Shown: positions 1 through 38,357 of the stretch, in pieces
Numbering within the stretch: the first letter of the stretch is position 1
Layout: each line of letters begins with the position of its first letter
IMG/VR virus record: IMGVR_UViG_3300022856_000004
Length of the DNA stretch: 64,000 nt
Source: an uncultured virus (IMG/VR IMGVR_UViG_3300022856_000004)
Lineage: Duplodnaviria > Heunggongvirae > Uroviricota > Caudoviricetes
Strand: one strand, 5' to 3'
Program-made: the position numbers and the translations under genes
The notes under the pieces: model-generated
The model's input: only the letters and a program-made list of their open reading frames with translations
The model's database searches: none
Told to the model about the DNA's origin: nothing

Positions 1-219
1 TCCATCATTATATTCCCAATAAATTTCATTATTATTAGAATCAAATTCGCTTTTTACCCAAAATCCATTACTATCTTCACGATAAATTCGATTATTATTA
101 GAATCAAATTCTCTTTTTACCCAAAATTCATCATTATATTCCCAATAAACCCATTTATTATTTGAATTGTATATATTTATTTCATCAGTTACATTGATAT
201 ATAATATTTTAAGTTTCAT
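1..219 (-). CDS. 23-aa-repeat family protein (EFDSNNNxIYxE), 3' end runs off the window
   Basis: ATG at 219; manual translation MKLKILYINVTDEINIYNSNNKWVYWEYNDEFWVKREFDSNNNRIYREDSNGFWVKSEFDSNNNEIYWEYNDG, same repeat as 10327 and 23981-26081. Confidence 0.8.
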   Translation of the reverse strand, partial: MKLKILYINVTDEINIYNSNNKWVYWEYNDEFWVKREFDSNNNRIYREDSNGFWVKSEFDSNNNEIYWEYNDG

Positions 220-225
220 TTTATT

Positions 226-405
226 TTATTTTATAAAATATCGTACTAAATACACACGATTCACAATCGAGAGTTCATTGAGTTCCAAAATCATAATGTT
301 ATTTGGATAAGAAGATTTATGTGTATTGTATACACGTACAAGCAACTTATCTATTATATTTGATAAATTGTGGTTATTGGTATTGTATATACATTTAAGT
401 TTCAT
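226..405 (-). CDS. hypothetical protein (probable start MKLK at 405)
   Basis: Tightly packed between neighbours; ATG overlaps the upstream stop; N-terminus MKLKxxY resembles the repeat-family starts. Confidence 0.5.
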   Translation of the reverse strand: MKLKCIYNTNNHNLSNIIDKLLVRVYNTHKSSYPNNIMILELNELSIVNRVYLVRYFIK

Positions 406-650
406 TTTATACACTCATGTTTTTGCTTTATGAGTTGTTGTAATTCTACATTCTTTTCTGCAACTATTCGTTTACATTCATTTCGGTATATAGTAGCTTT
501 ATCCCATATAGTTTCTTCATATCCGTGCGTTGGAAGCTCATATCTAGTATTTAAAATGGTTTCTAATTCATTTATTACCATTTCACACTCAAATATATCT
601 TTATCAATTCCAGTTAATCCGTCATCGATGGTTGAGTAAAATTGTGTCAT
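402..650 (-). CDS. hypothetical protein
   Basis: 82-aa ORF directly downstream of the promoter at 676-707. Confidence 0.65.
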   Translation of the reverse strand: MTQFYSTIDDGLTGIDKDIFECEMVINELETILNTRYELPTHGYEETIWDKATIYRNECKRIVAEKNVELQQLIKQKHECIK

Positions 651-675
651 ATTAAATCTAATAATTAATAATATA

Positions 676-707
676 CAAACTTACGAAATTAAATTGATAT
701 AAACAAA
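676..707 (-). promoter_or_regulatory. Bacteroidota-type primary-sigma promoter (-33 TTTG, -7 TAAGTTTG)
   Basis: Minus strand TTTG-N20-TAAGTTTG; same spacing recurs at ten other sites. Confidence 0.8.
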
Positions 708-734
708 TTTTATTTTAATGATATGTTAAATTTA

Positions 735-760
735 AAAGTCGAAGTATAGATGTACTTCGA
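735..760 (-). terminator. intrinsic terminator closing tRNA operon B
   Basis: TCGAAGTA/TACTTCGA 8-bp stem followed by CTTTT on the minus strand, just 3' of tRNA-Ser(GCT). Confidence 0.6.
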
Positions 761-765
761 AAATG

Positions 766-850
766 CGGAAATAAAAGGAATCGAACCTTCATCTCGTTTT
801 CACGATTGACTCTTTAGCAAAGAGTTTGCTACACCAATTGCCGTATTTCC
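766..850 (-). tRNA. tRNA-Ser(GCT)
   Basis: Acceptor GGAAATA/TATTTCC, anticodon arm ACTCT-TT GCT AA-AGAGT, long variable arm, T-loop TTCGATT. Confidence 0.85.
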
Positions 851-862
851 ATTTTTTTAGTG

Positions 863-949
863 TACCGGTAGGAAGATTTGAACTTCCAAGTGTATCTTCG
901 TTTACCCACGAGTCTAAATCGCGTGACTTTACCATTTGTCTATACCGGT
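863..949 (-). tRNA. tRNA-Leu(TAG)
   Basis: Acceptor ACCGGTA/TACCGGT, CGCGA-TT TAG AC-TCGTG, long variable arm, GGAAG-TTCAAAT-CTTCC. Confidence 0.85.
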
Positions 950-956
950 AGATTTG

Positions 957-1030
957 TGGACACATATCGGATTTGAACCGATAACCCCCATATTGCAAGT
1001 ATGGTGCTTTCCCAATTAAGCTAATGGCCC
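957..1030 (-). tRNA. tRNA-Ala(TGC), one extra base in the acceptor stem
   Basis: CCATA-CT TGC AA-TATGG; acceptor GGGCCAT/ATGTGTCC keeps G3:U70 but has a bulged T. Confidence 0.8.
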
Positions 1031-1036
1031 ATTATT

Positions 1037-1093
1037 GTATGATATATCATTCATATTATATGGATTATATGTTATATGAATGACATATCATAC
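1037..1093. repeat. long AT-rich inverted repeat between tRNA genes
   Basis: GTATGATAT-A-TCATTCATAT ... ATATGAATGA-C-ATATCATAC, about 20 bp (the mismatch is G-U on the minus strand). Confidence 0.7.
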
Positions 1094-1098
1094 TAATG

Positions 1099-1170
1099 TT
1101 GAGTGGGGTGGGGTCGAACCACCGAATGTCGGCTTCAAAAACCGATGCCTTACCACTTGGCTACCACCCA
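1099..1170 (-). tRNA. tRNA-Gln(TTG)
   Basis: Acceptor TGGGTGG/CCACTCA, D-arm GCC-AAGTGGTAA-GGC, TCGGT-TT TTG AA-GCCGA. Confidence 0.9.
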
Positions 1171-1178
1171 ATATATTG

Positions 1179-1251
1179 TACGAATGAATGGATTCGAACC
1201 ATCACTGAACGAGGTTTAAACTCGATCCCTCTTCCGTTGGGGTACATTCGC
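1179..1251 (-). tRNA. tRNA-Leu(TAA), short variable loop
   Basis: Acceptor GCGAATG/CATTCGT, CGAG-TT TAA AC-CTCG, T-loop TTCGAAT. Confidence 0.85.
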
Positions 1252-1261
1252 ATTTTTGTTG

Positions 1262-1346
1262 TAGGTGGTGAGAGATTCGAACTTAGCTATAGTATGAACT
1301 AACCAGATTTACAGTCTGGCTGGGATCTCCAACTCCCGTACGACGC
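1262..1346 (-). tRNA. tRNA-Tyr(GTA), degenerate (possible pseudogene)
   Basis: Intact CCAGA-CT GTA AA-TCTGG arm, D-arm and TTCGAAT loop, but acceptor and T stems pair poorly. Confidence 0.6.
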
Positions 1347-1353
1347 ATTAAAG

Positions 1354-1440
1354 AGGAAGTTGGGGCAGTCGAAACCCCATTGCCTTATTAGGGGCTTAGC
1401 TGTTTTCAAAACAGTTTGCTACACCAATTGCTGAACTTCC
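1354..1440 (-). tRNA. tRNA-Ser(TGA)
   Basis: Acceptor GGAAGTT/AACTTCC, CTGT-TT TGA AA-ACAG, long variable arm; D region near-identical to the Ser(GCT) copy. Confidence 0.85.
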
Positions 1441-1442
1441 AT

Positions 1443-1482
1443 AAAAAGAAAAAATCTCGTCTATTTTATTAGAGGAGATTTT
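1443..1482 (-). terminator. intrinsic terminator (putative attenuator) immediately 5' of tRNA operon B
   Basis: AAAATCTC-C-TCTA-ATAAAA-TAGA-C-GAGATTTT followed by TTCTTTTT, ending 2 nt before tRNA-Ser(TGA). Confidence 0.75.
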
Positions 1483-1513
1483 ATTTCATATTCATTATAT
1501 AATTTTATTTTAT

Positions 1514-1627
1514 CTAATTAATAACATAAATATCCCCTACCATCGAATCCAGAGCAGTCGCTAACGACCACAATGTGATTGGTTGTAATATACTCGGTTG
1601 TTGATATGTTATTATTGTATTTTTCAT
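1514..1627 (-). CDS. putative attenuator leader peptide 1 (37 aa, MKNTIITYQQPSILQPITLWSLATALDSMVGDIYVIN)
   Basis: Manual translation ATG 1627 to TAG 1514; sits between the shared promoter-like block and the terminator; codons match operon B tRNAs. Confidence 0.65.
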   Translation of the reverse strand: MKNTIITYQQPSILQPITLWSLATALDSMVGDIYVIN

Positions 1628-1634
1628 CTTATAT

Positions 1635-1668
1635 ATAAATAGAGATAAGTTTCTCGTAAATTAATTAT
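1635..1668 (-). promoter_or_regulatory. conserved block upstream of tRNA leader 1 (putative phage-specific promoter)
   Basis: 31/34 nt identical to 4806-4839; minus-strand core TATCTCTATTTAT. Confidence 0.65.
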
Positions 1669-1801
1669 ATCGATATGTTGGACTCGATACCAACAAAAAC
1701 GATTCTCCCACGCACGTCAACCCACATAAAACTTAATCTAATAAGAAGCACTGACTCCTACTTTACTTATGTTAGGCGTGTCTATCTTTCACCAATATCA
1801 A
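1669..1801 (-). ncRNA. tRNA-like RNA with a large insert replacing the anticodon/variable region
   Basis: Acceptor-like TTGATAT/ATATCGA, D-like GTG-AAAGATAGA-CAC, T-like GTTGG-TATCGAGT-CCAAC; about 80 nt between D and T arms. Confidence 0.5.
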
Positions 1802-1807
1802 TATAAA

Positions 1808-2113
1808 TTAATTTACGAGAAACTTTTCTTTATCTAAAGTTGCTAATACCCTATAAAATAAAATCCCATTTTCAGTTTTGAATTGAACCTTAATCGGTCT
1901 AATACTTCTTGTTCCTGTTCTGATGGATTTTGTTACTTGTTCTGTACCATCATTATCTATAAAAGTAAGTTCATATCCCAATTGTTCACCATAGACCATA
2001 GAATCTAAATTAAACTTAGTATCTGTTTCTTCCCAATTACCATATGAAGATATTTCATCTTCCACTGTAGATTCTGTTATGAACCTTTTAAATTTATCGA
2101 ATTCATTTGTCAT
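1808..2113 (-). CDS. hypothetical protein
   Basis: 101-aa ORF, ATGA-coupled to the upstream gene. Confidence 0.7.
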   Translation of the reverse strand: MTNEFDKFKRFITESTVEDEISSYGNWEETDTKFNLDSMVYGEQLGYELTFIDNDGTEQVTKSIRTGTRSIRPIKVQFKTENGILFYRVLATLDKEKFLVN

Positions 2114-3039
2114 TGTACATTCCCTATATATTTAGTGTCTATATGACATCCATCTTGTTCTATATTATCTATGCTTATTATCAATATACTACCGATAACA
2201 TTAAAATAAAACGTAGTATTTTTATTCGTACCTTGTATTTCATATCTAATATTCATATTCTCACTGGTCAACGCTATAGTAGTAGTTGAACCATGAGATT
2301 CACAATTATAGTCATCATGATCATCTTGTATTTCTATAGTTTCAAATCCTACTAAATGAGATTGCAAGAATTGAATTACTTGTTGAAAATTGATTCTTAT
2401 ATTATCAATTAATAAACATGTAGTGTCAGCATCTGGTTTTATATAATCGCTTACTTGTAATTGTTTCGTTTTACCATTATACGACATAAACTTTATATAT
2501 TCATCGTTATAATCATCTTTTATTTTTATAGTTCTTATTTGTTTATGCTCATTATACAATTTAGTATTTATATGTGTTTTTATCTTAGTTAATCTATCAT
2601 TTAAAACTTCATATTTAGACACTAAATCATTTAATACAGATAACCATTCTTCAAATTGACTTATGAATTTATCTATATCTTCTATCGTAGAAATGGAAAA
2701 TGTAATTGATTGTAATTTGTCAAGTTGTTTCCACTTTGGGAATTTGTAAGAATGATACTCATCATAACAACACCCATAACCGTATCTATTGTGTAGACTT
2801 CTAAGTGGTTTAACTTCGATTGTAATTCGTTCGTCATTATTATTATATGTTACATCTATATCACCAAAATCTTGATAATTACCAATTATACTAAAACCGT
2901 CTGTGTTATAGCTATTACGTTCCATAGATTCTGTAATTGCATTCCAAAATAGTTTATTATGTGTTTTATTTCTACATAAATCATATAATATAGTTGTTAA
3001 ACTTATAGTTTTACTTTCATTCTTCTTCTTCCAGAACAT
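2110..3039 (-). CDS. hypothetical protein
   Basis: 309-aa ORF, no recognised motif. Confidence 0.75.
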   Translation of the reverse strand: MFWKKKNESKTISLTTILYDLCRNKTHNKLFWNAITESMERNSYNTDGFSIIGNYQDFGDIDVTYNNNDERITIEVKPLRSLHNRYGYGCCYDEYHSYKFPKWKQLDKLQSITFSISTIEDIDKFISQFEEWLSVLNDLVSKYEVLNDRLTKIKTHINTKLYNEHKQIRTIKIKDDYNDEYIKFMSYNGKTKQLQVSDYIKPDADTTCLLIDNIRINFQQVIQFLQSHLVGFETIEIQDDHDDYNCESHGSTTTIALTSENMNIRYEIQGTNKNTTFYFNVIGSILIISIDNIEQDGCHIDTKYIGNVQ

Positions 3040-3075
3040 TTTTACTCTCTTTTTTTTAATGTATTCTTAATATGT

Positions 3076-3546
3076 CTATTTAACTAAGTCATCTCTTAAT
3101 TTAGTTAAGACCTTTCCTAACAAATTTAAACCTAACCACTGTTCAGGGTCTTGTGCTCTTGGATCATCTTCAAGTAAACCAATACCCCAAATCTTATCAC
3201 ATGGAGAAGCATCAACTAAAGTTTTATCTTTAGTATCAAGTAATTTATTTAATAATTTTTCGTTTTGTGTGAACTTTGCATGGTTTCCTTTATATACAAT
3301 TTCTTCACATACAACTGACCATTTTTCAGCAATGAAATTTGAAACTTCTCTACCTAGTTTCTTCTGTTGTTTTGGATGTAAAGTATTCATAATCTTTGAA
3401 GCAGTTAATTCATCACCAAAGAATAAAGCCTTTTGTTGCATCATATACTGTTCTGTACAATTATACATATCACCATCTATTTCAAATTTACAAGGATGCC
3501 ATTGACTAAATGGCCCTGACCAGAAAAATTCATAATTCTCATTCAT
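3076..3546 (-). CDS. NADAR (YbiA-like) family N-glycosidase
   Basis: FWSGPFSQW, TEQYMMxxKAxxFGD, KxLGRxV, KFTQN, LVDASPxDKIWGIG, GLNLLG motifs. Confidence 0.9.
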   Translation of the reverse strand: MNENYEFFWSGPFSQWHPCKFEIDGDMYNCTEQYMMQQKALFFGDELTASKIMNTLHPKQQKKLGREVSNFIAEKWSVVCEEIVYKGNHAKFTQNEKLLNKLLDTKDKTLVDASPCDKIWGIGLLEDDPRAQDPEQWLGLNLLGKVLTKLRDDLVK

Positions 3547-3582
3547 AATGTTATTTTTTTAATATCGTTTAAAATAATAATA

Positions 3583-3614
3583 CAAACTTACGAAAAAATA
3601 ATGATATAAACAAA
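3583..3614 (-). promoter_or_regulatory. Bacteroidota-type promoter upstream of NADAR
   Basis: TTTG-N20-TAAGTTTG. Confidence 0.8.
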
Positions 3615-3616
3615 TT

Positions 3617-4096
3617 TTATTTTCTATTAGCTATTAAATCAGCTGCACACGTTGCAGCAGGTGCATTTGGTTTTGCAAATACATCAAACCCTAAACTTTT
3701 AAGCCAACCTACAGCCGCAGGATATGCTATATTAGATTTATATTTAGCTTCTGAATTTAAATCGATATGGATTTCTACAGGTTCTTGTAAAATATCTTGT
3801 ATTTCTTCGGCTATACATTTAGATTTCTCTACTTCAGTCCAAAGCATTTCAAATATAGATAATTCTTTTTTATGTTTATCCATAGAATATATTAAATGAG
3901 CACCTTTATTGTATCCATCAGTTCCATAATAAAACATAGCTATCACGGTAACATAAATAACTTTTTTAGATGCCTTCTTATATTTTGAATCCGATCCAAC
4001 TGCTATTTTAGCATCAGGATTCATTTCAATGAATTTCTGAACATGTAAAATCCAATCATCAATTATTTCGTTTGTTTGGAATGTCTTGAAATACAT
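3617..4096 (-). CDS. RNase H-like YkuK (DUF458) family protein
   Basis: VGSDS, YVTVI, GAH, EVEKS, EIHIDLN, KPxAxAAxxAAD motifs. Confidence 0.8.
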   Translation of the reverse strand: MYFKTFQTNEIIDDWILHVQKFIEMNPDAKIAVGSDSKYKKASKKVIYVTVIAMFYYGTDGYNKGAHLIYSMDKHKKELSIFEMLWTEVEKSKCIAEEIQDILQEPVEIHIDLNSEAKYKSNIAYPAAVGWLKSLGFDVFAKPNAPAATCAADLIANRK

Positions 4097-4114
4097 ATAT
4101 ACCTTAGTTTAAAG

Positions 4115-4187
4115 AGGTGAATCCCAGATTCGAACTGGGGTAAACGAGTTTGCAATCCGTTGTCTGAAACCACTCGACTAATTCACC
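4115..4187 (-). tRNA. tRNA-Cys(GCA)
   Basis: Acceptor GGTGAAT/ATTCACC, discriminator U, loop TT GCA AA, CCCAG-TTCGAAT-CTGGG. Confidence 0.85.
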
Positions 4188-4201
4188 ATTATTATATTTT
4201 G

Positions 4202-4273
4202 TACCCAAGGTAGGATTCGAACCTTTATCTCCAATTGGAGGTAGGATAATGTTGCCAATTACACCAAATGTAC
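4202..4273 (-). pseudogene. degenerate tRNA, most like Gly(TCC)
   Basis: D-arm GTGT-AATTGGCA-ACAT and AGG-TTCGAAT-CCT present; TCCTA-CC TCC AA-TTGGA arm imperfect; acceptor stem does not pair. Confidence 0.5.
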
Positions 4274-4285
4274 ATTTCTAACGAG

Positions 4286-4359
4286 TTGACCTGGACGGAC
4301 TTGAACCGTCGATCTTCGAATTATGAGTTCGCTGCTTTGACCAACTAAGCTACAGATCA
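4286..4359 (-). tRNA. tRNA-CAT (probably Ile2, lysidine-modified; elongator Met not excluded)
   Basis: Acceptor TGATCTG/CAGGTCA, CGAA-CT CAT AA-TTCG, lacks the three G-C pairs of initiators. Confidence 0.8.
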
Positions 4360-4366
4360 ATATTTG

Positions 4367-4441
4367 GGTGAATGATGGGCTACGATCCCACGACCTTCGG
4401 TTTCACAGACCGACGCTCTAACCAACTGAGCTACAAACACC
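4367..4441 (-). tRNA. tRNA-His(GTG) with encoded G-1
   Basis: TCGGT-CT GTG AA-ACCGA, G-1:C73; two T-T mismatches in the acceptor and atypical T-loop ATCGTAG. Confidence 0.8.
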
Positions 4442-4452
4442 ATAATAAAAAG

Positions 4453-4536
4453 TTGCGGAAGACAGATTCGAACTGTCATTATACTTCTCGTCTCTGGGTT
4501 ATGAGCCCAGGATGTTAACCATTACACCATTCCGCA
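4453..4536 (-). tRNA. initiator-like tRNA-Met(CAT) with a 16-nt variable loop
   Basis: CTGGG-CT CAT AA-CCCAG (three G-C pairs), acceptor TGCGGAA/TTCCGCA, variable region AGACGAGAAGTATAAT. Confidence 0.8.
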
Positions 4537-4544
4537 ATAACTTG

Positions 4545-4617
4545 TGATCTTACAGGAACTCGAATCCTGATTGCAACTTCGAATGAGTTGTGTCCTAACC
4601 ATTTAGACGATAAGACC
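4545..4617 (-). tRNA. tRNA-Glu(TTC) with atypical anticodon loop (A33, G37)
   Basis: Acceptor GGTCTTA/TAAGATC, Glu-type D-arm GTCT-AAATGGTTA-GGAC, CAACT-CA TTC GA-AGTTG. Confidence 0.75.
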
Positions 4618-4624
4618 GAATTAT

Positions 4625-4664
4625 AAATAAAAAATCCTTCAGTGTTTTAAGTTGAAGGATTTTT
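4625..4664 (-). terminator. intrinsic terminator (putative attenuator) immediately 5' of tRNA operon A
   Basis: AAAAATCCTTCA/TGAAGGATTTTT stem followed by TATTT, ending a few nt before tRNA-Glu. Confidence 0.75.
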
Positions 4665-4690
4665 ATAAATTTTTAGAAATGAATTTATTA

Positions 4691-4777
4691 TTATGCCCTT
4701 CGTACATACACCCCAAACCCACACTCAACGTGTATATTAGGTCTAAAGCTATTCATATGTTTATTATTACGAGTCAT
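4691..4777 (-). CDS. putative attenuator leader peptide 2 (28 aa, MTRNNKHMNSFRPNIHVECGFGVYVRRA)
   Basis: Manual translation ATG 4777 to TAA 4691; same promoter-leader-terminator-tRNA layout as 1443-1668. Confidence 0.65.
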   Translation of the reverse strand: MTRNNKHMNSFRPNIHVECGFGVYVRRA

Positions 4778-4805
4778 TATTATCTTTTTAATTTTACTTC
4801 TATTA

Positions 4806-4839
4806 ATAAATAGAGATACGTTTTTTGTAAATTAATTAT
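4806..4839 (-). promoter_or_regulatory. conserved block upstream of tRNA leader 2 (putative phage-specific promoter)
   Basis: 31/34 nt identical to 1635-1668. Confidence 0.65.
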
Positions 4840-6944
4840 TATTTTATATATTTTGAATTTATAGTTAGAACATCACTTGCTCTAACAACATTTTTATTAT
4901 CTAACGTATCATCCTCATACTCATCCGTAACATATAGCATATCAGCGTTATCAATGTCAAATGTTAATTGTGATGGTGCATAGTACATACTAAATAAGTC
5001 TTTTAATGTAGTTTTATCAGTTAGATTAACTATAGACCTTAACACATCAGATACATTCACATCATTATTGATAACTGTGTTATGATGCATACCACCATTT
5101 CTAAAATATAAATCAGTCCAGATTATCTGTTTAGTTTCAATATCAAAGATAAATGGAACTGCTACCTTAGAATTTCCATCTAATTTCATAGAATACTTAA
5201 CTGTTTTAGGATCATAAATCTCATTTGAATTAGGACGTTCTCTTAGCATAAAACCTGCGAAACATTCTTTATGTTCTTTAAATGTTGGGCCACTATAAAC
5301 ATTTATATTTAATGTTATATATCTAACTTCTGATTTTACTACTTTATTCATAGTTATATCAATAAATTCAGATGCTCCATTTGGTGCTCGTGTAATATCA
5401 CCAGAATGTACTATTTCTAATTCTTTAATTTTTAATTGTTGAAATGAACAATGAGTTACCATTTCAAATTTATCATTATATAATGTAGCTGACAAATCAA
5501 TATCTTGTCCTATCCAATGACAAAACATTCGTAAAGTTATATTTTTATTTTTATCTTCTAAATCAATCTTAGATCCTCTACCATAAGAGAATTGACCTTC
5601 CGATACACTTCTTTGTTGTGTAGGTAATGTATATTGACTTAATCTTTCATCTATATATACTTTCTTACCTTCTGACGTTCCTTGTAATCTCAATCTTAAA
5701 TGTGAGTTTATACAATTTAGATAGTCTTGTACTAATTGCAATTGCCAATCTGTAAATTTCTTAAATTGCACTCTTCTAACTTTAGATGTAGAACCTTTAG
5801 GAAATACTAATCTACTATCATAACCTTTTAATATAACTTGTAAGTGTCCTTTAGCTTGTAATAATACTCGTGTTGATACTTCTGATATACATTCTTCTAA
5901 ATTATCAATACCTAATTTACCAGAGTTATATCCATCAGAGATATTAATTAAAGTTACTATGTTTCTTACGTATTCACCTGGTTTCTTCATTAGAGAATTA
6001 ATAGCTGAATGATAGTCTTTATTTTTTAAAGATTCATTTATAATAGTGCTTAAACTCTCTACATTTTTATTATTTCTAAATGATCTCAATACATCTGAAA
6101 ATTTGGATTGTTTTAGAAATTCACCACAATGTAATGAATGTGTTAATTTAATCCATTTATTTTTATGTCTCTTGAAGTCATCTACGTTAAACACTTTATC
6201 AAGTCTATTAGTTATTCTACGTCTAAGACTTTTAGATAATGATTTAAACTTGGTATTTTCAGTTAATGATACATCACCACCAGATAGATATGTACAGTAA
6301 CGTAGTATATCAGTTGGTGTTTTGAGTAATTCTAAATTATCAGTATATTCAACTACATAACATAAGTTTTCTTTATATGGAATATTTATAGTATTAATAT
6401 CATATATCTCTCCAAAGTGAGCTATTAATACCTTAACTGATTCCTTATCGAAATCAGATAGAGAATCATTAGTAGATAATAAATCACATAATATTTCTAT
6501 CATACCATTAATATCTATTATACCTATACGTTTGAAGTTTAATACGTCAATATCAGTTTGTCTTGGCTTTTTATCTATATCTGGATAGTATTCGCCTAAT
6601 GACAAATAATGTATTATAGCGTTAAAGTATAGCTCAAATTCAGACATATTATAAACTTCTTCTGGGAAGTTTGGATAAAATGTTTTATATGAACGTGCAC
6701 CTTTAAATTCTTCCAATATAAAAATTATATCAATTAAATTTAAGTTATATCGTAATACAAGTTTAAGTAAATGAGAATCTATCGTATAACCCAAATTATT
6801 CAATATTTGGTTATATGCTATAGTCTCTTTTATTGATTGTTTGTAATTATTAATATCAATATCTTCTAATACTGTAGAAGATGAGTCCATTATGAATATA
6901 GATGATCTATATTTTAATGCTATTTTTAATAGGTCTTTATTCAT
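4839..6944 (-). CDS. alpha-helical ROT/TROVE-like repeat protein with C-terminal TerD-like domain
   Basis: N-terminal FYPNFPxEV...LYFNAIIHY, TPTDILR...SGGDVSL, KPGEYVR; C-terminal RMFCHW, DIDLSA, HSGDITRAPNGASEFIDI. Matches the TROVE-like+TerD architecture described for Prok-RING_4-associated proteins; no RING cysteines seen. Confidence 0.75.
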   Translation of the reverse strand: MNKDLLKIALKYRSSIFIMDSSSTVLEDIDINNYKQSIKETIAYNQILNNLGYTIDSHLLKLVLRYNLNLIDIIFILEEFKGARSYKTFYPNFPEEVYNMSEFELYFNAIIHYLSLGEYYPDIDKKPRQTDIDVLNFKRIGIIDINGMIEILCDLLSTNDSLSDFDKESVKVLIAHFGEIYDINTINIPYKENLCYVVEYTDNLELLKTPTDILRYCTYLSGGDVSLTENTKFKSLSKSLRRRITNRLDKVFNVDDFKRHKNKWIKLTHSLHCGEFLKQSKFSDVLRSFRNNKNVESLSTIINESLKNKDYHSAINSLMKKPGEYVRNIVTLINISDGYNSGKLGIDNLEECISEVSTRVLLQAKGHLQVILKGYDSRLVFPKGSTSKVRRVQFKKFTDWQLQLVQDYLNCINSHLRLRLQGTSEGKKVYIDERLSQYTLPTQQRSVSEGQFSYGRGSKIDLEDKNKNITLRMFCHWIGQDIDLSATLYNDKFEMVTHCSFQQLKIKELEIVHSGDITRAPNGASEFIDITMNKVVKSEVRYITLNINVYSGPTFKEHKECFAGFMLRERPNSNEIYDPKTVKYSMKLDGNSKVAVPFIFDIETKQIIWTDLYFRNGGMHHNTVINNDVNVSDVLRSIVNLTDKTTLKDLFSMYYAPSQLTFDIDNADMLYVTDEYEDDTLDNKNVVRASDVLTINSKYIK

Positions 6945-6969
6945 TTAAAGATTTCCTTATTATTAAATA

Positions 6970-7108
6970 TTAAATTGTGATTATGAAATCGTTTTATACT
7001 TCTGCTCTACCAACTGAGCTACTAACCGATTATTACGATTAGGTAGGACTCGAACCTACGACCTGAAGTTCCTTAATGTTAGAAGTATGATTTCATATAG
7101 CAATTTAA
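6970..7108 (-). ncRNA. Y-RNA-like unit 1 containing a circularly permuted tRNA domain (YrlA topology)
   Basis: Terminal stem TTAAATTG/CAATTTAA plus a 9-bp inner stem enclose T-arm, loop-closed acceptor stem and D-arm (6998-7069). Confidence 0.8.
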
Positions 7109-7117
7109 GTAAAAAAT

Positions 7118-7179
7118 GTCTGTAATTGAAATTTCGATTAATATCCAAAATTATAGAAGTATGAAATTTCATAGCAGAC
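7118..7179 (-). ncRNA. Y-RNA-like unit 2
   Basis: GTCTG-CTA-TGAAATTTC-ATACTTCTA...C-GAAATTTCA-ATTA-CAGAC. Confidence 0.7.
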
Positions 7180-7200
7180 TTAAATTAATTTTAAAAGAAA

Positions 7201-7268
7201 GGGTTGTAATTATAAAAACGTAGTTTGCGTTTTGTATATTTTAGAAGTATGTTTCTATATAGCAACCC
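7201..7268 (-). ncRNA. Y-RNA-like unit 3
   Basis: GGGTTG-CTA-TATAGAAAC-ATACTTCTA...C-GTTTTTATA-ATTA-CAACCC; G-U wobble only on the minus strand. Confidence 0.7.
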
Positions 7269-7275
7269 ATAGTAT

Positions 7276-7351
7276 TATTTGTAATTGATATTTCGTTTCT
7301 TGTTATATTCATGGTATAGTAGTTTAGAAGTATGAAATATCATAGCAAACA
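7276..7351 (-). ncRNA. Y-RNA-like unit 4
   Basis: TGTTTG-CTA-TGATATTTC-ATACTTCTA...C-GAAATATCA-ATTA-CAAATA. Confidence 0.7.
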
Positions 7352-7383
7352 GTTTAATTTTTATTTTGTGTCAATTCTTAATA

Positions 7384-7415
7384 CAAACTTACGAAAAAGA
7401 AATGACATATCCTAA
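7384..7415 (-). promoter_or_regulatory. Bacteroidota-type promoter driving the RNA array and TROVE-like/TerD gene
   Basis: TTAG-N20-TAAGTTTG, about 30 nt upstream of unit 4. Confidence 0.75.
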
Positions 7416-7424
7416 TTTTATTTT

Positions 7425-8321
7425 TTAGTCAAATAACTTATCTATAATTTTAGCTACATAAGTAGAATTAATATCTTCTTTCTTAGAATCTTGTAATATA
7501 TCTACTAACGCATACATATATGCTTGATCAACACCAGTTAATTGTTCAGTTAAGACATTAATATCAGACATATCTATTTCAGATATTTGCCACATTATTT
7601 TTAATTGTTCTCCAGCAGATATTCTCCAACCACGTTCTAAGAACTTCTTAGTTCTAAATATAGATGCTATTGGATATAAACTACCTTTATATACTAAAGT
7701 CCTCGATAACAAGCATTCTAATGCTTCTGGGTGCAATACCAACGTATCATTATCATAATCATAATAATTCATAGCATGAACAAAATCATAATTACTATGG
7801 ATAGTTTGTGGATCACCATAAAATCTAGTTACTAATTGAATCTTATCTGTTAATGTTATAGCATTACTTGATATGAACACAGGTGCATATTTACCATTTT
7901 CATCTGTAACAAAATCACCGAAATCATCAGAATCTGTTTCATTTGTTACGATACCCTTACCACCTCTTGCTTCAATATAAACTCTATCTTCATCTACACC
8001 TTTAATATTACAAATAGACTTTTCAATTACATTCATAGGAACTTCATCTAATTTATTAGATACTCTAATACTATTTAATTTATTAATGTAATATTTAGCT
8101 ACTTGTATATTGCAATCTTTAGTTTTAAAATATATATCATAATCATTTACTGGATCACCTAATAACATAGATGCTATAGAGCCACCAGTTACGATTGTAT
8201 TTTTTCTACATAATTTTTGTATATTCTCATCATCTATACTATCTATCCAATTAGATACTTTTTTATTTAGTTCCTTTCTGATACCTGATTTCTTTCTACC
8301 ATATTTAATATCTACACTCAT
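7425..8321 (-). CDS. Pol-beta-superfamily nucleotidyltransferase-like protein
   Basis: IVTGGSIAS...NDYDIYF (GG/S..DxD signature), SxNAITL, YDFVH, RxxKFxxRGW. Confidence 0.7.
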   Translation of the reverse strand: MSVDIKYGRKKSGIRKELNKKVSNWIDSIDDENIQKLCRKNTIVTGGSIASMLLGDPVNDYDIYFKTKDCNIQVAKYYINKLNSIRVSNKLDEVPMNVIEKSICNIKGVDEDRVYIEARGGKGIVTNETDSDDFGDFVTDENGKYAPVFISSNAITLTDKIQLVTRFYGDPQTIHSNYDFVHAMNYYDYDNDTLVLHPEALECLLSRTLVYKGSLYPIASIFRTKKFLERGWRISAGEQLKIMWQISEIDMSDINVLTEQLTGVDQAYMYALVDILQDSKKEDINSTYVAKIIDKLFD

Positions 8322-8381
8322 TATATTTACTCTTTTTGTTAATGTTAAAACTTAATTACTTTCTTTCTGAAAGATAATTTA

Positions 8382-8413
8382 CAAACTTACGGAATTATTT
8401 ATTAACTTCCAAA
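8382..8413 (-). promoter_or_regulatory. Bacteroidota-type promoter
   Basis: TTTG-N20-TAAGTTTG. Confidence 0.75.
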
Positions 8414-8415
8414 TT

Positions 8416-8667
8416 TTATTTTTTGTTAGGTCGATTATCTATTATAGTACCATCATTACGTTCATAATAAATTTCATTACCATTAAAATCAAATTCTTTT
8501 TTTGCCCATTCACCGTAACTATTTCAATATAAATACAGTCACCTTTAGAATCATATTTATACATTTGCCAATTTTCATTAATATCTTTATGATAAATTAC
8601 ACGATTGTTAAAATCTCGTACTCTTATAGTATAACCATCTGAATTATTTTAAGTTCTTTAGCTTCAT
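8416..8667 (-). pseudogene. frameshifted member of the 23-aa-repeat family
   Basis: Pieces MKLKNL / DGYTIRVRDFNNRVIYHKD...YDSKGDCIYIE / NSYGEWAKKEFDFNGNEIYYERNDGTIIDNRPNKK* are separated by frameshifts at A-runs. Confidence 0.6.
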
Positions 8668-9187
8668 TTATAATATTATTAATTAACAAATGCATTTCAG
8701 TCTCACTAAACACACGATTGAGTTCAGCAGTAACCCTATCTATATCTTTTCTTTTATGTTCTACCCAGAATTCGTAGATGTCCTCTTTGAAGTTCTCATA
8801 TTCACTTGATGATATAACATTATCTACCATCAGTTCCATATCAAGATAACTTAATATAGCACATAGACTGGAATCGTACTTATGTTTAATCTTATTTAAT
8901 TCCTTTAGTGTATCATTCTCATCAAATACCAATTCTAACATATTAAATGATAATCTAGATTTATTAATAATATCTTCAAATATAGATTTAGATATTACTG
9001 GATCCATACTCGGATTTAACATTGTAATCGTACATTCAATTAATTTATTTAGTAATAACGAATTACATCTAACGTAATACAAAACATTAAGACGTTTGGA
9101 TTCTTTTTTTTGTTTCTTAGTTGGTTCTGGTGTATTTCTACAACCACAATTATCATCCTTTTCACCATAATATGAATAGCATGGCAT
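8624..9187 (-). CDS. hypothetical protein
   Basis: 187-aa ORF in operon context. Confidence 0.7.
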   Translation of the reverse strand: MPCYSYYGEKDDNCGCRNTPEPTKKQKKESKRLNVLYYVRCNSLLLNKLIECTITMLNPSMDPVISKSIFEDIINKSRLSFNMLELVFDENDTLKELNKIKHKYDSSLCAILSYLDMELMVDNVISSSEYENFKEDIYEFWVEHKRKDIDRVTAELNRVFSETEMHLLINNIINEAKELKIIQMVIL

Positions 9188-9190
9188 ATT

Positions 9191-9397
9191 TCACTCCTTA
9201 ATTAATTTCCATTTTACATAATTATAAAAAATACGTATATAACTAAATTCATTCCCATAACGCCTATAATAATCTTCGTTTATAGGTTGGAAACTATTAT
9301 AAAAATTATAAGCAAATTTCATATTCACTGTTTGTGGTGGATATAAATCTACCTCTATATGATCATCTCTGAAGTATATAAAGTCATGCTCATCCAT
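9191..9397 (-). CDS. hypothetical protein, paralog of 9390-9605
   Basis: Shared MDE start and YxRIxxxYVKWKLI C-terminus. Confidence 0.65.
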   Translation of the reverse strand: MDEHDFIYFRDDHIEVDLYPPQTVNMKFAYNFYNSFQPINEDYYRRYGNEFSYIRIFYNYVKWKLIKE

Positions 9398-9605
9398 TAA
9401 TTAATTTCCATTTTACGTATGATTCGTATATTCTATTATATTCAATCTGATAGCCATAGATGGAATATGGAACTCTATGATCACCAGTCACCAAAAAATT
9501 ATAAAACATTATAACTATAGTTCTGTTTGATCTCGGTTCTTGTATTGAATGTATATAAATATAATCCACAACAAAAGCGATGTGTGTGACTACTGGTTCA
9601 TCCAT
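9390..9605 (-). CDS. hypothetical protein, paralog of 9191-9397
   Basis: Shared MDE start and YxRIxxxYVKWKLI C-terminus. Confidence 0.65.
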   Translation of the reverse strand: MDEPVVTHIAFVVDYIYIHSIQEPRSNRTIVIMFYNFLVTGDHRVPYSIYGYQIEYNRIYESYVKWKLING

Positions 9606-10267
9606 TCATATAACCTATATGTAGTATAAACATCTTTCTCACAATACTCATATATAAGCTCTATATCACCACCAGATTTGATAAATGGTACTAAATTACC
9701 ACCATTGACTATATCGGTCTTAGGTGTGTCTATATTAGCCTCATAACACGCTTGTTCTAATGATGGTGTTATAACACCACCGAAGTTAGAAGTAAATGTT
9801 AATTTTTGCTTAGTATCATATATATAATGTAAATTCCATGGTTTTTTACCTACTACGTGTAGATATTTAGGTAAATTCTTATATGGAATCCCATTTACCA
9901 TAGCACGTCTAATTATAAATGGTAAATCAAATTGTAGTATGTTATGACCTACTATAAAATCTATATAGTTCTCTAGTAATTCATTGAACTGTCCTATTAT
10001 TTCGGACTCTTCACCTTTTAATGTTCCAGTGTGTAATTCCCCATCATTATCATATATAAATGATATACATAATATCTTTGCAAATGTAGGATATAATGAC
10101 GAAGAACTATCCCATAATAGATCGTATCTATTTAATTCATCTTCGTATTCTGGCTTTTTATTTAATTTGTAATTACAAAACCGTTCCCATATAGGTATTA
10201 ATAGTTCATCTTCTTTGTAAGAATCATATATTGGATATGTTTCTATATCAAAATATAAATTGTTCAT
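9590..10267 (-). CDS. DnaQ-like (DEDDy) 3'-5' exonuclease
   Basis: ExoI FDIET, ExoII GHNIxxFDLPFI, ExoIII YCEKDV. Confidence 0.85.
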   Translation of the reverse strand: MNNLYFDIETYPIYDSYKEDELLIPIWERFCNYKLNKKPEYEDELNRYDLLWDSSSSLYPTFAKILCISFIYDNDGELHTGTLKGEESEIIGQFNELLENYIDFIVGHNILQFDLPFIIRRAMVNGIPYKNLPKYLHVVGKKPWNLHYIYDTKQKLTFTSNFGGVITPSLEQACYEANIDTPKTDIVNGGNLVPFIKSGGDIELIYEYCEKDVYTTYRLYEWMNQ

Positions 10268-10292
10268 TGTTTCCTCTGTATTAAAATAATTA

Positions 10293-10324
10293 CAAACTTA
10301 CGAAAATAAATCGATATAAACAAA
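10293..10324 (-). promoter_or_regulatory. Bacteroidota-type promoter
   Basis: TTTG-N20-TAAGTTTG; near-duplicate of 10716-10747. Confidence 0.8.
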
Positions 10325-10326
10325 TT

Positions 10327-10710
10327 TTATTTTTTGTTAGGTCTTTCGTCAAATATAGTTCCATCACTACTTTCAAAATAAATTCCTATATTATTAGAAT
10401 TATATTCTTGTTTTACCCAATATCCATCATCAGTTTCCCAATAAACTCGATTGTTATTAGAATCAAATTCCTTTTTTGACCAATATCCATCACTATTTTC
10501 ATAATAAATTTCATTATTATTAGAATCAAATTCGCTTTTTACCCAAAATCCATTACTATCTTCATAATAAATTCTATTGTTATTAGAATCAAATTCGCTT
10601 TTTACCCAAAATCCATTACTATCTTCATAATAAATTTTATTATTATTATTAGAATGGAATATTTGAATAATAGATGTGATTTCATCAATATATAATTTTT
10701 TAAGTATCAT
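10327..10710 (-). CDS. 23-aa-repeat family protein (start revised to MILKKLY at 10710)
   Basis: Repeats of YYEDSNGFWVKSEFDSNNNRI; the upstream ATG in the ORF track lies inside the promoter. Confidence 0.8.
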   Translation of the reverse strand: MILKKLYIDEITSIIQIFHSNNNNKIYYEDSNGFWVKSEFDSNNNRIYYEDSNGFWVKSEFDSNNNEIYYENSDGYWSKKEFDSNNNRVYWETDDGYWVKQEYNSNNIGIYFESSDGTIFDERPNKK

Positions 10711-10715
10711 AATTA

Positions 10716-10747
10716 CAAATTTACGAAAATAAATCGATATAAACAAA
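10716..10747 (-). promoter_or_regulatory. Bacteroidota-type promoter
   Basis: TTTG-N20-TAAATTTG, only 5 nt before the ATG. Confidence 0.7.
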
Positions 10748-10754
10748 TTTTATT

Positions 10755-11135
10755 TTAGATAGGAGTGTTACGTGGGTAAAATGTTACATTACCATCATTC
10801 GTGTTCACTGTTGTACCACTAGAATTGATTGATACTATATAACCATCTTTAGTTACATAACCACAAATATCATATGTTTTTGGATCATATATAGTATCTT
10901 TATATGGCCATATCCCAAGTAACCTTAGATCTTCTGGGTTATCAGTGATTACACCACTACGCATTGAATCTACTACTGCATCTTGAAGTGCTTCATTAAC
11001 ACCAGAACATATAATTACATTACTCATATCAAAGTTATGTTCTTGACAGAATGCGATTATACTATTTAAGTTGTAATCTGATTGTAATTTGAATTTTACT
11101 TTTTCGTTATTTGATTCATATTCTACGCTTATCAT
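10755..11135 (-). CDS. hypothetical protein
   Basis: 126-aa ORF, ATGA-coupled. Confidence 0.7.
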   Translation of the reverse strand: MISVEYESNNEKVKFKLQSDYNLNSIIAFCQEHNFDMSNVIICSGVNEALQDAVVDSMRSGVITDNPEDLRLLGIWPYKDTIYDPKTYDICGYVTKDGYIVSINSSGTTVNTNDGNVTFYPRNTPI

Positions 11136-23624: not shown

Positions 23625-23978
23625 TCAAACTCCATTATAAAAATAATATTGAATGTCCTTTCCTAATTTACCAGCCGCATTATATTCTGCTTGAACACCT
23701 ATACTATTCTGTATTAAACGTGTTCCATCATATTCAGTCATATCAACAACTACTAACTCATCACAATGCTCAATCCAATATAGATCTTGTTCTAACCACC
23801 AATTACTATCAGTCTGTAGTTTAGGATCTAAATATTCAGCTATAGGGTGTGAGTGTGATATAGGAGAAAATACTATATATCCTCTCTTCATAAAGTCAGC
23901 AGCTACTTCATTAGCAATTCTAAATGATACTTCTGGATTCCAAGAATATGGAATTGATAAATATATTATTTTTTTCAT
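23625..23978 (-). CDS. DUF1937 / nucleoside 2-deoxyribosyltransferase-like protein
   Basis: IYLSIPYS, VFSPISHSHP, WLxxD, CDELVV, SxGVxAE. Confidence 0.8.
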   Translation of the reverse strand: MKKIIYLSIPYSWNPEVSFRIANEVAADFMKRGYIVFSPISHSHPIAEYLDPKLQTDSNWWLEQDLYWIEHCDELVVVDMTEYDGTRLIQNSIGVQAEYNAAGKLGKDIQYYFYNGV

Positions 23979-23980
23979 TC

Positions 23981-24370
23981 TTATTCCTTCTCTTTGATTA
24001 TTTTTACATTATATTCAATTAATTCACATATTTCTTTATGAGTTAATCTTTTAACTTCTTTAGGTCTTTTATCTAGTATAGTTCCATCACTATCTTCATA
24101 ATAAATTCTATTGTTATTAGAATCAAATTCGTTTTTTACCCAAAATCCATTACTATCTTCACAATAAATTAGATTGTTATTAGAATCATATTCGATTTTT
24201 ACCCAAAATCCATTACTATCTTCACAATAAATTAGATTGTTATTAGAATCAAATTCGCTTTTTGACCAATCTCCATTACTATATTCACAATAAATTTCAT
24301 TTCTGTTTTTATCAAATAATTGTTTTGGAAATTCTTGATTTTTAAGTAATTTTTTTAAAGTCATCTTCAT
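23981..24370 (-). CDS. 23-aa-repeat family protein
   Basis: MKMTLKKLLKNQEFPK head, repeats, KRLTHKEICELI tail. Confidence 0.85.
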   Translation of the reverse strand: MKMTLKKLLKNQEFPKQLFDKNRNEIYCEYSNGDWSKSEFDSNNNLIYCEDSNGFWVKIEYDSNNNLIYCEDSNGFWVKNEFDSNNNRIYYEDSDGTILDKRPKEVKRLTHKEICELIEYNVKIIKEKE

Positions 24371-24374
24371 TTTA

Positions 24375-24893
24375 TTATTCCTCGTCTTTGATTATTTCTA
24401 CATCATATCCAATTAATTCACATATTTCTTTATGAGTTAATCTTTTAACTTCTTTAGGTCTGTTATCTATTATAATTCCATCACTATCTTCACAATAAAT
24501 TCTATTATTATTAGAATCATATTCCTTTTTTACCCAAAATCCATCACTATTTTCCCAATAAATTCTATTATTATTAGAATCATATTCGCTTTTTACCAAA
24601 TCTCCATTACTATTTTCCCAATAAATTTTATTATTATTAGAATCAAATTCGCTTTTTACCCAAAATCCATTACTATTTTCATAATAAATTTCATTATTAT
24701 TAGAATCATATTCTTTTTTTACCCAAAATCCATCACTATTTTCCCAATAAATTTCATTATTATTAGAATCAAATTCGCTTTTTACCCAACAATCTCCATT
24801 ACTACTTTCCCAATAAATTTCATTTCCGTTTTTATCAAATAGTTCCTTCGGAAATTCTTGATTTTTAAGTAATTTTTTTAAAGTCATCTTCAT
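24375..24893 (-). CDS. 23-aa-repeat family protein
   Basis: Same head and tail, more repeats. Confidence 0.85.
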   Translation of the reverse strand: MKMTLKKLLKNQEFPKELFDKNGNEIYWESSNGDCWVKSEFDSNNNEIYWENSDGFWVKKEYDSNNNEIYYENSNGFWVKSEFDSNNNKIYWENSNGDLVKSEYDSNNNRIYWENSDGFWVKKEYDSNNNRIYCEDSDGIIIDNRPKEVKRLTHKEICELIGYDVEIIKDEE

Positions 24894-24898
24894 TTTAT

Positions 24899-25162
24899 TT
24901 ATTCTTTTTCTTTGATTATTTCTACATTATATCCAATTAATTCACATATTTCTTTATGAGTTAATCTTTTTGTTTCTTTAGGTATGTTATCATATATAGT
25001 ACCATTACTATTTTCACAATAAATTTCATTATTATTAGAATCAAATTCTTTTATATAAAAGAATCCATTACTATTTTCATAATAAATTCTATTGTTATTA
25101 GAATCATATAGCACTATAGGATTATGAATTACAGTATCAATATGTAATTTTTTAAGTATCAT
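24899..25162 (-). CDS. 23-aa-repeat family protein (short)
   Basis: MILKKL head, repeats, KRLTHKEICELI tail. Confidence 0.8.
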   Translation of the reverse strand: MILKKLHIDTVIHNPIVLYDSNNNRIYYENSNGFFYIKEFDSNNNEIYCENSNGTIYDNIPKETKRLTHKEICELIGYNVEIIKEKE

Positions 25163-25671
25163 TTTTTAGGTCTTTTACCTCGTATAATTCCATTACTATC
25201 TTCATAATAAATTCTATTGTTATTAGAATCAAATTCTCTTTTTACCCAAAATCCATCACTATCTTCACAATAAAGTTCATTGTTATTAGAATCAAACTCT
25301 CTTTTTATCCAATCTCCATTACTATTTTCAAAATAAATACAATTATCATTAGAATCAAATTCTTTTATATAAAATAATCCATTACTATTTTCCCAATAAA
25401 TTTCATTATTATTAGAATCAAACTCTCTTTTTACCCAACAATCTCCATTACTATCTTCCCAATAAATACAATTATCATTAGAATCAAATTCCTTTTTTAC
25501 CCAAAATCCATCACTATTTTCCCAATAAATTATATTATTATTAGAATCAAATTCTCTTTTTACCCAACAATCTCCATTAATATTTTCCCAATAAATTTGA
25601 TTTCTGTTTTTATCAAATAGTTCCTTCGGAAATTCTTGATTTTTAAGTAATTTTTTTAAAGTCATCTTCAT
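25159..25671 (-). CDS. 23-aa-repeat family protein lacking the tail motif
   Basis: Same head; ends GKRPKK. Confidence 0.85.
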   Translation of the reverse strand: MKMTLKKLLKNQEFPKELFDKNRNQIYWENINGDCWVKREFDSNNNIIYWENSDGFWVKKEFDSNDNCIYWEDSNGDCWVKREFDSNNNEIYWENSNGLFYIKEFDSNDNCIYFENSNGDWIKREFDSNNNELYCEDSDGFWVKREFDSNNNRIYYEDSNGIIRGKRPKK

Positions 25672-25676
25672 TTTAT

Positions 25677-26081: not shown

Positions 26082-26083
26082 TC

Positions 26084-26278
26084 TTATTCCTCATTTAAAT
26101 TTAAACGTCTCTCAAATTCATCAGTATCAAAAATATTATCCAAATCTATAAAATAGACATACGTTGTATCTTGTCCTTGAATGTATATAATAGGTTCAAG
26201 TTGTGATTTAACTATATTGATATACTTTGTTCTCGTATACGTATAACCACTAAGCCAACCCATACTATACATGAGCAT
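26084..26278 (-). CDS. hypothetical protein
   Basis: 64-aa ORF abutting the repeat cluster. Confidence 0.45.
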   Translation of the reverse strand: MLMYSMGWLSGYTYTRTKYINIVKSQLEPIIYIQGQDTTYVYFIDLDNIFDTDEFERRLNLNEE

Positions 26279-26600: not shown

Positions 26601-26628
26601 ATATTTTCTATCTCTAATTAATAATATA

Positions 26629-26660
26629 CAAACTTACGAAAAAGAAATTACATTTCCAAA
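26629..26660 (-). promoter_or_regulatory. Bacteroidota-type promoter
   Basis: TTTG-N20-TAAGTTTG. Confidence 0.8.
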
Positions 26661-38355: not shown

Positions 38356-38357
38356 TT

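Follow-up and report, generated by a model that had tools for sequence, protein, structure and literature searches.

The DNA analyzed here is a 64,000-nt stretch (the window) from an uncultured virus, part of the 93,250-nt virus record IMGVR_UViG_3300022856_000004 (28.6% G+C). Two arrays of transfer RNA (tRNA) genes, A and B, lie on its minus strand. Each array is headed by a leader of the same layout, namely a conserved 34-nt block, a short open reading frame (ORF), an intrinsic terminator and, within 10 nt, the first tRNA or tRNA-like gene. This layout, described in an initial annotation of the sequence, holds at both arrays. The interpretation towards which we tentatively lean, from the sequence features of the leaders, is that ribosome-read transcription attenuators may head both arrays, with the block serving as a promoter or regulator site.

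Organization of the two tRNA arrays and their leaders

The two modules, and a further copy of the block, comprise the following features.

4806-4839, minus strand: 34-nt block ahead of array A, starting 1-2 nt past the stop codon of the gene for a 701-residue (701-aa) protein
4691-4777, minus strand: leader ORF 2, 28 codons plus TAA, translation MTRNNKHMNSF...
4696-4701, minus strand: candidate antiterminator strand 2, GAAGGG (codons 26-28), pairing with UCCUUC of the terminator 5' arm
4621-4664, minus strand: intrinsic terminator 2, arms 4664-4653 / 4641-4630, then a T-run
4114-4617, minus strand: tRNA array A (ARAGORN, Rfam), with Glu-TTC 4544-4617, CAT (85 nt) 4452-4536, His-GTG 4366-4440, CAT 4285-4359, a 97-nt stretch 4188-4284 and Cys-GCA 4114-4187
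1806-1836, plus strand: third block copy, inverted, within the final codons of a 104-aa gene
1635-1668, minus strand: 34-nt block ahead of array B
1514-1627, minus strand: leader ORF 1, 37 codons plus TAG, translation MKNTIITYQQPS...
1526-1537, minus strand: candidate antiterminator strand 1, GGGGATATTTAT (codons 31-34), pairing with AUAAAAUCUCCUC
1441-1481, minus strand: intrinsic terminator 1, arms 1481-1472 / 1461-1452, then TTTTTTCTTTTT
1353-1440 and 1261-1346, minus strand: sub-threshold part of tRNA array B, Ser-TGA-like and Tyr-like, respectively
765-1440, minus strand: tRNA array B, of which the remaining genes are Leu-TAA 1178-1251, Gln-TTG 1098-1170, Ala-TGC 958-1030, Leu-TAG 862-949 and Ser-GCT 765-850 (ARAGORN, Rfam)

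Default ARAGORN and Rfam each identify 10 tRNAs, where the initial annotation had claimed 13; Ser-TGA, Tyr and a 'Gly-like' gene are unconfirmed. The first two are called solely by relaxed ARAGORN, which gives 59 genes in the record versus 10 with the default settings, and Rfam returns nothing at their positions at E<=10. The Ser-TGA-like fold is plausible, and the Tyr-like fold is poor: its acceptor stem contains two C-C mismatches, and its T stem is weak. None of the tools (ARAGORN default or relaxed, Rfam) calls the 'Gly-like' stretch (4188-4284) as Gly. The 85-nt CAT-anticodon tRNA at 4452-4536 has a long variable arm, which is unusual for Met or Ile2 tRNAs. Additionally, array B is interrupted between tRNA-Gln and tRNA-Ala by a 67-nt AT-rich, near-palindromic spacer (1031-1097), whose sole Rfam match is a sub-threshold one to a microRNA model.

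The block copies ahead of the two arrays are identical at 31 of 34 positions, as had been reported, and are the sole matches in the window at up to three mismatches, with 0 expected by chance (100 shuffles). Beyond the block, leaders 1 and 2 share merely scattered AT-rich identities. Both leader ORFs are in the same frame relative to the block, and this frame is open from a TAA inside the block (1514-1660 and 4691-4831). Read in that frame, the three differences between the copies comprise one synonymous and two conservative changes (ACG/ACA, AGA/AAA, TTA/GTA); there is no canonical start codon in this part.

In phage lambda, the Q protein brings about late-gene antitermination at PR'-qut-tR', and the 6S RNA is about 190 nt long. 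By analogy, the block might be the loading site of a phage or host factor that lets RNA polymerase pass terminators, as with lambda Q, N/nut or rrn boxA, so that the terminators would be timing gates and the ORFs incidental. The modules resemble PR'-qut-tR' in a conserved site that would be promoter-proximal, in a block-to-terminator transcript that would measure about 190 nt, comparable to 6S RNA, and in a strong terminator with the genes of interest behind it. Moreover, the block is the sole part conserved between the modules, its 34 contiguous bases exceed the need of two promoter hexamers, and the inverted third copy suggests a binding site that is independent of orientation. However, such a mechanism would require a Q-like protein, and it assigns no role to maintained ORFs and leaves them, and the terminator-arm pairing described below, unexplained. 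The 93 kb hold three copies of the block only, and no boxA-like motif is found near either leader (15 matches in the window versus 21.7 expected; none within 600-5000 at up to two mismatches). We consider factor loading improbable.

Leader ORFs, terminators and their pairing

Hairpin 1 (1481-1452), with -8.8 kcal/mol and one internal mismatch, is part of an inverted repeat at 1451-1463 / 1470-1482. Hairpin 2 (4664-4630) is a perfect inverted repeat of 12 base pairs (bp) with -11.3 kcal/mol. A simple terminator scan flagged hairpin 2 alone, and on the plus strand. The first tRNA or tRNA-like gene begins 3 nt (array B, at 1440) or about 7 nt (array A, at 4617) beyond the T-run. There is no room for a promoter between terminator and first tRNA; therefore, transcription of the tRNAs depends on terminator read-through.

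An ORF as long as that observed was reached in 2.4% (leader 1, P=0.024) and 3.3% (leader 2, P=0.033) of 5000 dinucleotide shuffles per leader. The codon usage of both ORFs is unusual for the genome, with values resembling a codon adaptation index (CAI) of 0.54 for leader ORF 1 and 0.51 for leader ORF 2, which fall in the lowest 3.2% and 2.2%, respectively, of 854 thirty-codon gene windows. Codons ending in G make up 19% of the leader ORFs versus 7% in genes. The two leader peptides have no shared sequence despite the 31/34 identical block alongside, and neither matches a family in Pfam or PHROGs at E<=10. Divergent peptides beside a conserved block would fit a frame whose translation, rather than its peptide, matters. 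A suspected similarity between leader 1 and the N-terminus of ribosomal protein bL34 was rejected, given the absence of any such family match. The stop codon lies 33 nt (leader 1) and 27 nt (leader 2) ahead of the hairpin.

The end of each ORF contains a strand that can pair with the 5' arm of the terminator behind it. In leader 1, this pairing is the alternative fold once the terminator 3' arm is unavailable; in leader 2, the GAAGGG-UCCUUC pair has a probability of about 1.0 in a transcript cut ahead of the 3' arm. In the nascent RNA, the terminator 5' arm is expected to form 6.46 pairs with the final 33 nt of the ORF in leader 1 versus 0.56 in shuffled sequences (P=0.010), and 5.84 versus 0.94 in leader 2 (P=0.040; 400 shuffles each), and nearly all of the terminator-arm pairing is with this segment. 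As controls, four other intergenic terminator-like hairpins of the genome gave 0.11, 0.00, 3.02 and 0.01 pairs, none of them unusual, with one of the four (at 67001) scored against the wrong upstream ORF.

Since the ORF-end strand can pair with the terminator 5' arm, the position of the ribosome would decide between termination and read-through. In the scheme we favor, the block would act as the promoter or a regulator-binding site. A ribosome running smoothly to the stop codon would cover the pairing strand, the terminator would form, and few tRNAs would be made. A slow, early-stalled or absent ribosome would leave the strand free to sequester the terminator arm, with read-through into the tRNAs and, at array A, also into the RNase H-like gene behind it. 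The richness of the leader ORFs in codons that are rare in the phage would make them sensitive to translation speed; general sensing of translation is taken as the default over tuning to the downstream tRNAs. The evidence for a ribosome-sensed attenuator is moderate. To this extent, the ORF lengths, the pairing and the controls support the attenuation proposed in the initial annotation, whereas its more specific element, sensing of tRNA depletion through matched codons, is not secured.

Several observations weigh against the scheme. The 33-nt segment was picked after the folds had been seen and after a position-free test had failed; in the latter, the arm core is sequestered equally or better in 16% / 10% of shuffles, which is not significant. 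The alternative folds, at -28.0 / -28.1 kcal/mol versus -36.7 kcal/mol with the terminator, are 8.6-8.7 kcal/mol weaker. The competing helices are short, that of leader 2 having just 6 bp, and an anti-antiterminator (1:2 pairing) was not identified in the leaders. The coding score of the leader ORFs is intermediate. The block misfits the recurrent TTTG-N20-TAnnTTTG promoter motif of this phage and was rejected as a consensus promoter for that reason. Finally, several other hairpins of the phage directly precede genes, so that leaky hairpins are perhaps routine. A sigma-70-like match, TTGGTA-18-TATAAT, is present at 1693-1664, but the region shows no enrichment of sites of this type (36 versus 41.4 expected).

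The prevalence of such hairpins bears on an alternative in which the leader ORFs are small phage genes of the ordinary kind, each having a promoter-like block and a leaky terminator or 3' stabilizer hairpin of its own; the tRNAs would come from constitutive read-through, be cut out by RNase P, and nothing would be sensed. The coding strand has 11 terminator-like hairpins, of which 7 are intergenic; 3 of these 7 (67001, 45986, 41629) have the next ORF 21-30 nt further on and no promoter motif nearby. The 27- and 33-nt distances from stop codon to hairpin likewise resemble those found at two ordinary phage genes (31 and 35 nt). Small genes of this kind do not readily explain why the ORFs are dissimilar despite the 31/34 block, why both are rich in rare codons and without a family match, or why the ORF 3' end pairs with the terminator arm at both leaders and not at the control hairpins. 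We regard this alternative as possible but unlikely. That the ORFs and the pairing are chance features of AT-rich intergenic DNA beside ordinary terminators is very improbable: the sequences are short, several tests were post hoc and the position-free pairing test is not significant, but two independent modules pass the ORF-length and pairing tests where the controls do not, and the block is far beyond chance expectation.

Leader-peptide attenuators are well known from amino-acid operons (trpL, hisL, pheL, leuL, thrL and ilv). Transcription attenuation by leader peptides is treated in two accounts (PMC1183508, PMC3082878). The phage leaders resemble trp/his-type attenuators in having a short leader ORF, an intrinsic terminator before the regulated genes and a candidate ORF-end strand able to pair with the terminator 5' arm. 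They differ in that phage tRNAs, instead of biosynthetic enzymes, would be regulated, in that the leaders lack runs of cognate codons, and in that the terminator abuts the first tRNA. Closest in spirit among described systems is the attenuator formed by the upstream ORF (uORF) of whiB7 in mycobacteria. There, stalling within a uORF of variable sequence leads to antitermination; the system reacts when tRNAs, tRNA synthetases or amino acids are lost, and it is presented as sensing translation stress broadly, though with a bias in composition (PMC10274678). The whiB7 uORF is described as alanine-enriched and controls a bacterial transcription factor, whereas the phage leaders would have the tRNAs as their own output and would thus form a direct feedback loop.

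In the open-access literature searched, no paper was found to report that leader ORFs attenuate tRNA genes or the tRNA arrays of phages. Why phages carry tRNA genes is a long-standing question. If the terminators are indeed sensed by ribosomes, the output of the tRNA arrays would be coupled to the translation state of the infected cell, which would provide a testable regulatory logic for the timing of phage tRNA production and would mean that leader-peptide attenuation reaches beyond enzyme genes and also governs the translation machinery itself.

Codon content of the leaders and the tRNAs behind them

The initial annotation had also noted a match between the codons of each leader and the tRNAs of the array behind it. 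The counts of 13 of 21 codons (leader 1) and 5 of 6 codons (leader 2) were reproduced, in sub-windows that are post hoc, as was the absence of His, Glu and Cys codons from leader 1 and of Leu and Gln codons from leader 2. Over the whole ORFs, 14 of 36 codons in leader 1 belong to the set matching array B (set B; 9.6 expected, P=0.07), and 8 of 27 in leader 2 to the set matching array A (set A; 5.1 expected, P=0.12). A matched-minus-swapped statistic, taken against codon usage, gives nominal P values of 0.007 with every claimed tRNA included and of 0.017 with the confirmed ones alone; taken against pairs drawn from the 401 short ORFs of the genome, the nominal P is 0.02. The tRNA list, wobble rules, statistic and codon sub-windows were all set after the sequence had been seen. 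Leader 1 alone is equalled or beaten by 21% of the short ORFs.

Five of the eight rare codons in leader 1 (TTG, TCG twice, GCG and CTG) end in G and belong to families served by the U34 tRNAs of array B, and the matched codons precede the candidate antiterminator strand. Runs of cognate codons are absent from both leaders, many codons are unmatched, and off-target codons are present, with five of set A in leader 1 and three of set B in leader 2. The rare G-/C-rich codons also form hairpins in the leaders, and RNA structure may explain them. Overall, the match of codons to tRNAs is weak and not statistically secure.

These codons are the basis of a more specific reading, in which each leader would be a sensor of tRNA supply tuned to its own array. 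Depletion of the matching host tRNAs, by host defence (for example, by anticodon nucleases) or by phage takeover, would stall the ribosome, and exactly the lacking tRNAs would then be transcribed as replacements. The matched-minus-swapped statistic and the rare codons of leader 1 are in line with such tuning, and a stall at the matched codons would leave the antiterminator strand free. Some phage tRNAs are established as replacements for host tRNAs destroyed by tRNA-cleaving defence nucleases (PMC10264068, PMC11464382, PMC11555353). Tuning is nevertheless rather doubtful, and we consider it improbable: the whole-ORF enrichment is weak, the score of leader 1 is common among short ORFs, the choices behind the statistic were made post hoc, three of the tRNAs are unconfirmed, cognate runs are lacking, many codons are unmatched and some are off-target, and the leader hairpins may account for the rare codons. 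If it were correct, the leaders would form a self-correcting feedback loop for the tRNA pool, which is undescribed for any tRNA gene in the open-access literature searched.

Distant phages also speak against tuning. A set of 58 tRNA-rich IMG/VR loci, marked by homologues of the 701-aa gene (25-41% identical), contains 119 array heads, 72 of which have an upstream short ORF. Permutation across loci gave P=0.041 with strict wobble and P=0.11 with generous wobble, and permutation within loci gave P=0.002 and 0.07. The within-locus value of 0.002 was rejected as pseudo-replication, homologous copies having been counted repeatedly. With one head per cluster (47 clusters), 42.7 matching codons were found versus 42.5 expected (median P=0.54); thus, the apparent co-variation of leader codons with cluster anticodons, which the initial annotation had proposed to test in related phages, vanishes after de-replication, and general codon-anticodon covariation is not seen in distant phages. 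A terminator is located within 40 nt upstream of the array head in only 3 of the 119 cases, so most of these heads do not have the terminator layout.

Surroundings of the leaders and comparison with other phages

The third block copy, which had been missed in the initial annotation, forms together with 1636-1666 a 31-nt inverted repeat of 90% identity (1806-1836 and 1636-1666) that flanks 139 nt of higher G+C content. RNA folding of 1645-1826 gives -54.4 kcal/mol (z=-5.4), and Rfam has no match for the inverted-repeat region 1636-1836. This region could be a stem for RNase III-type processing, a structured RNA of small size, a segment capable of inversion or two binding sites forming a pair. 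The inverted copy is accounted for by none of the five readings, including the ribosome-read attenuators that we favor.

Two further features flank the arrays, and a promoter-like motif recurs at least 10 times ahead of genes of the phage.

3617-4096, minus strand: RNase H-like gene (PF04308, E=3.5e-18)
739-760, minus strand: hairpin past array B, behind which lies the next consensus promoter-like motif (650-719)
650-719, 3557-3626, 7358-7427, 10267-10336, 10690-10759, 26603-26672, 38298-38367, 51495-51564 and 56450-56519, coding strand: conserved intergenic promoter-like motif AAAATAAAATTTG-N20-TAAGTTTGTAT, of the TTTG / TAnnTTTG type

The RNase H-like gene starts 17 nt past tRNA-Cys, and the gap contains no promoter motif; the gene is probably on the same transcript as array A.

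A leader cassette of similar geometry precedes tRNA-Leu(TAA) at seven distinct loci of other IMG/VR jumbo phages.

L048, 1155-1437: cassette before tRNA-Leu(TAA)
L050, 2015-2296: cassette before tRNA-Leu(TAA)
L051, 3930-4208: cassette before tRNA-Leu(TAA)
L056, 1300-1586: cassette before tRNA-Leu(TAA)
L069, 912-1193: cassette before tRNA-Leu(TAA)
L071, 2440-2737: cassette before tRNA-Leu(TAA)
L075, 1340-1625: cassette before tRNA-Leu(TAA)

The cassette consists, in order, of a TAnnTTTG promoter, an ORF of 33-36 codons, a strong terminator and about 57 nt that contain a second TAnnTTTG and a boxA-like GTTCTTTGACAT. The ORF ends 22-30 nt ahead of the terminator and contains GTTCGGA at all seven loci, a copy of the terminator 3' arm GTTCGGG. 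Subgroups differ at two positions of the terminator stem, in each case on both sides, and the five indels within the ORF all have lengths divisible by three. In the pairing statistic, six of the seven loci reach 5.3-7.9 pairs (P=0.007-0.033); the seventh (L069) was mis-parsed, the script having taken a 13-codon overlapping frame.

The window leaders share this geometry, with ORFs of 37 and 28 codons, spacers of 33 and 27 nt, 6.46 and 5.84 pairs, and the pairing strand within the last 10 or so codons. They differ in having another block where the cassette has TAnnTTTG before the ORF, and in lacking the boxA-like motif after the terminator, with only 3-7 nt between terminator and tRNA. Membership of the window leaders in the cassette ORF family, suggested by eye from QQPS and G.G[IV]Y, was rejected: in a search with a family hidden Markov model (HMM; hmmsearch, 3162 genome frames), they rank 685 and 976 with scores near 0. 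The cassette peptide is partly conserved (motif ...PL[SN]..GNG[RY]G...SSE), and the second TAnnTTTG and the boxA-like motif lie before the tRNA, so the cassette could be a separate gene, which lends some weight to the view that the window leaders, too, are ordinary small genes.

A short 'RRRR' ORF before tRNA-Arg(TCT) in L069 and L071 was rejected as a conserved frame; what is conserved is a hairpin, CTACG-N5-CGTAG, plus AAGGAGG. In L069 (1274-1478) and L075 (1706-1916), a G+C-rich insert of 205-211 nt between tRNA-Leu and tRNA-Arg(TCT) ends in this hairpin; AAGGAGG comes next, and then a T-run that lies 3-4 nt ahead of the tRNA. In L071, the hairpin is present but the insert is absent. At many of the distant jumbo-phage loci, there are tRNAs of the amber-suppressor type, with anticodon CUA (L038, L041, L050, L054, L055, L057, L058, L066, L070, L076 and others), and at several, transfer-messenger RNA (tmRNA) genes are close to the 701-aa gene homologue.

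Window DNA is present in salt-lake metagenomes, with no RNA run among the data sets listed as containing it, and an IMG/VR fragment matches the window at 100% identity over the 6,745 nt compared. CheckV estimates this fragment to be 35% complete at 68 kb; therefore, the full phage genome is probably near 190 kb in size. All large ORFs of the window except one are on the minus strand, T4-type replication genes among them, and the best cultured match of the DNA polymerase is 35% identical. We take the TTTG-N20-TAnnTTTG motif to be the Bacteroidota promoter consensus, and from it we infer a Bacteroidota host.

Close relatives that could inform on the leaders were sought in several ways. The region has zero matches among cultured phages (megablast, blastn), tblastn with the 701-aa protein and polB finds nothing above 35% identity, and searches of IMG/VR with the 701-aa and RNase H-like proteins return no close relative, the 701-aa protein having no homologue above 41% identity among 872 matches. 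Patterns of the block are unmatched in the IMG/VR and metagenome data searched, and a tRNA-Glu pattern likewise has no match. The single relative found (polB 64% identical) is syntenic with the window over 9590-43505 and lacks the entire region 1-9590. From four DNA runs, only short contigs of low depth were obtained, all of them identical to the window, along with cross-matches to unrelated tRNAs; within the parts covered, these contigs contain no variants and no joint at the inverted repeat.

Elsewhere in the window, a 1586-aa ORF at 59080-63840, without a PHROG match, contains at least 12 tandem 117-nt repeats, and the large subunit of ribonucleotide reductase (1349 aa; 46011-50060) has an HNH endonuclease-like insert at residues ~427-657. 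Tandem 63-nt (21-codon) repeats, of which the window holds at least 26 copies, make up several ORFs (1-250, 8415-8615, 10258-10730 and 23918-26085).

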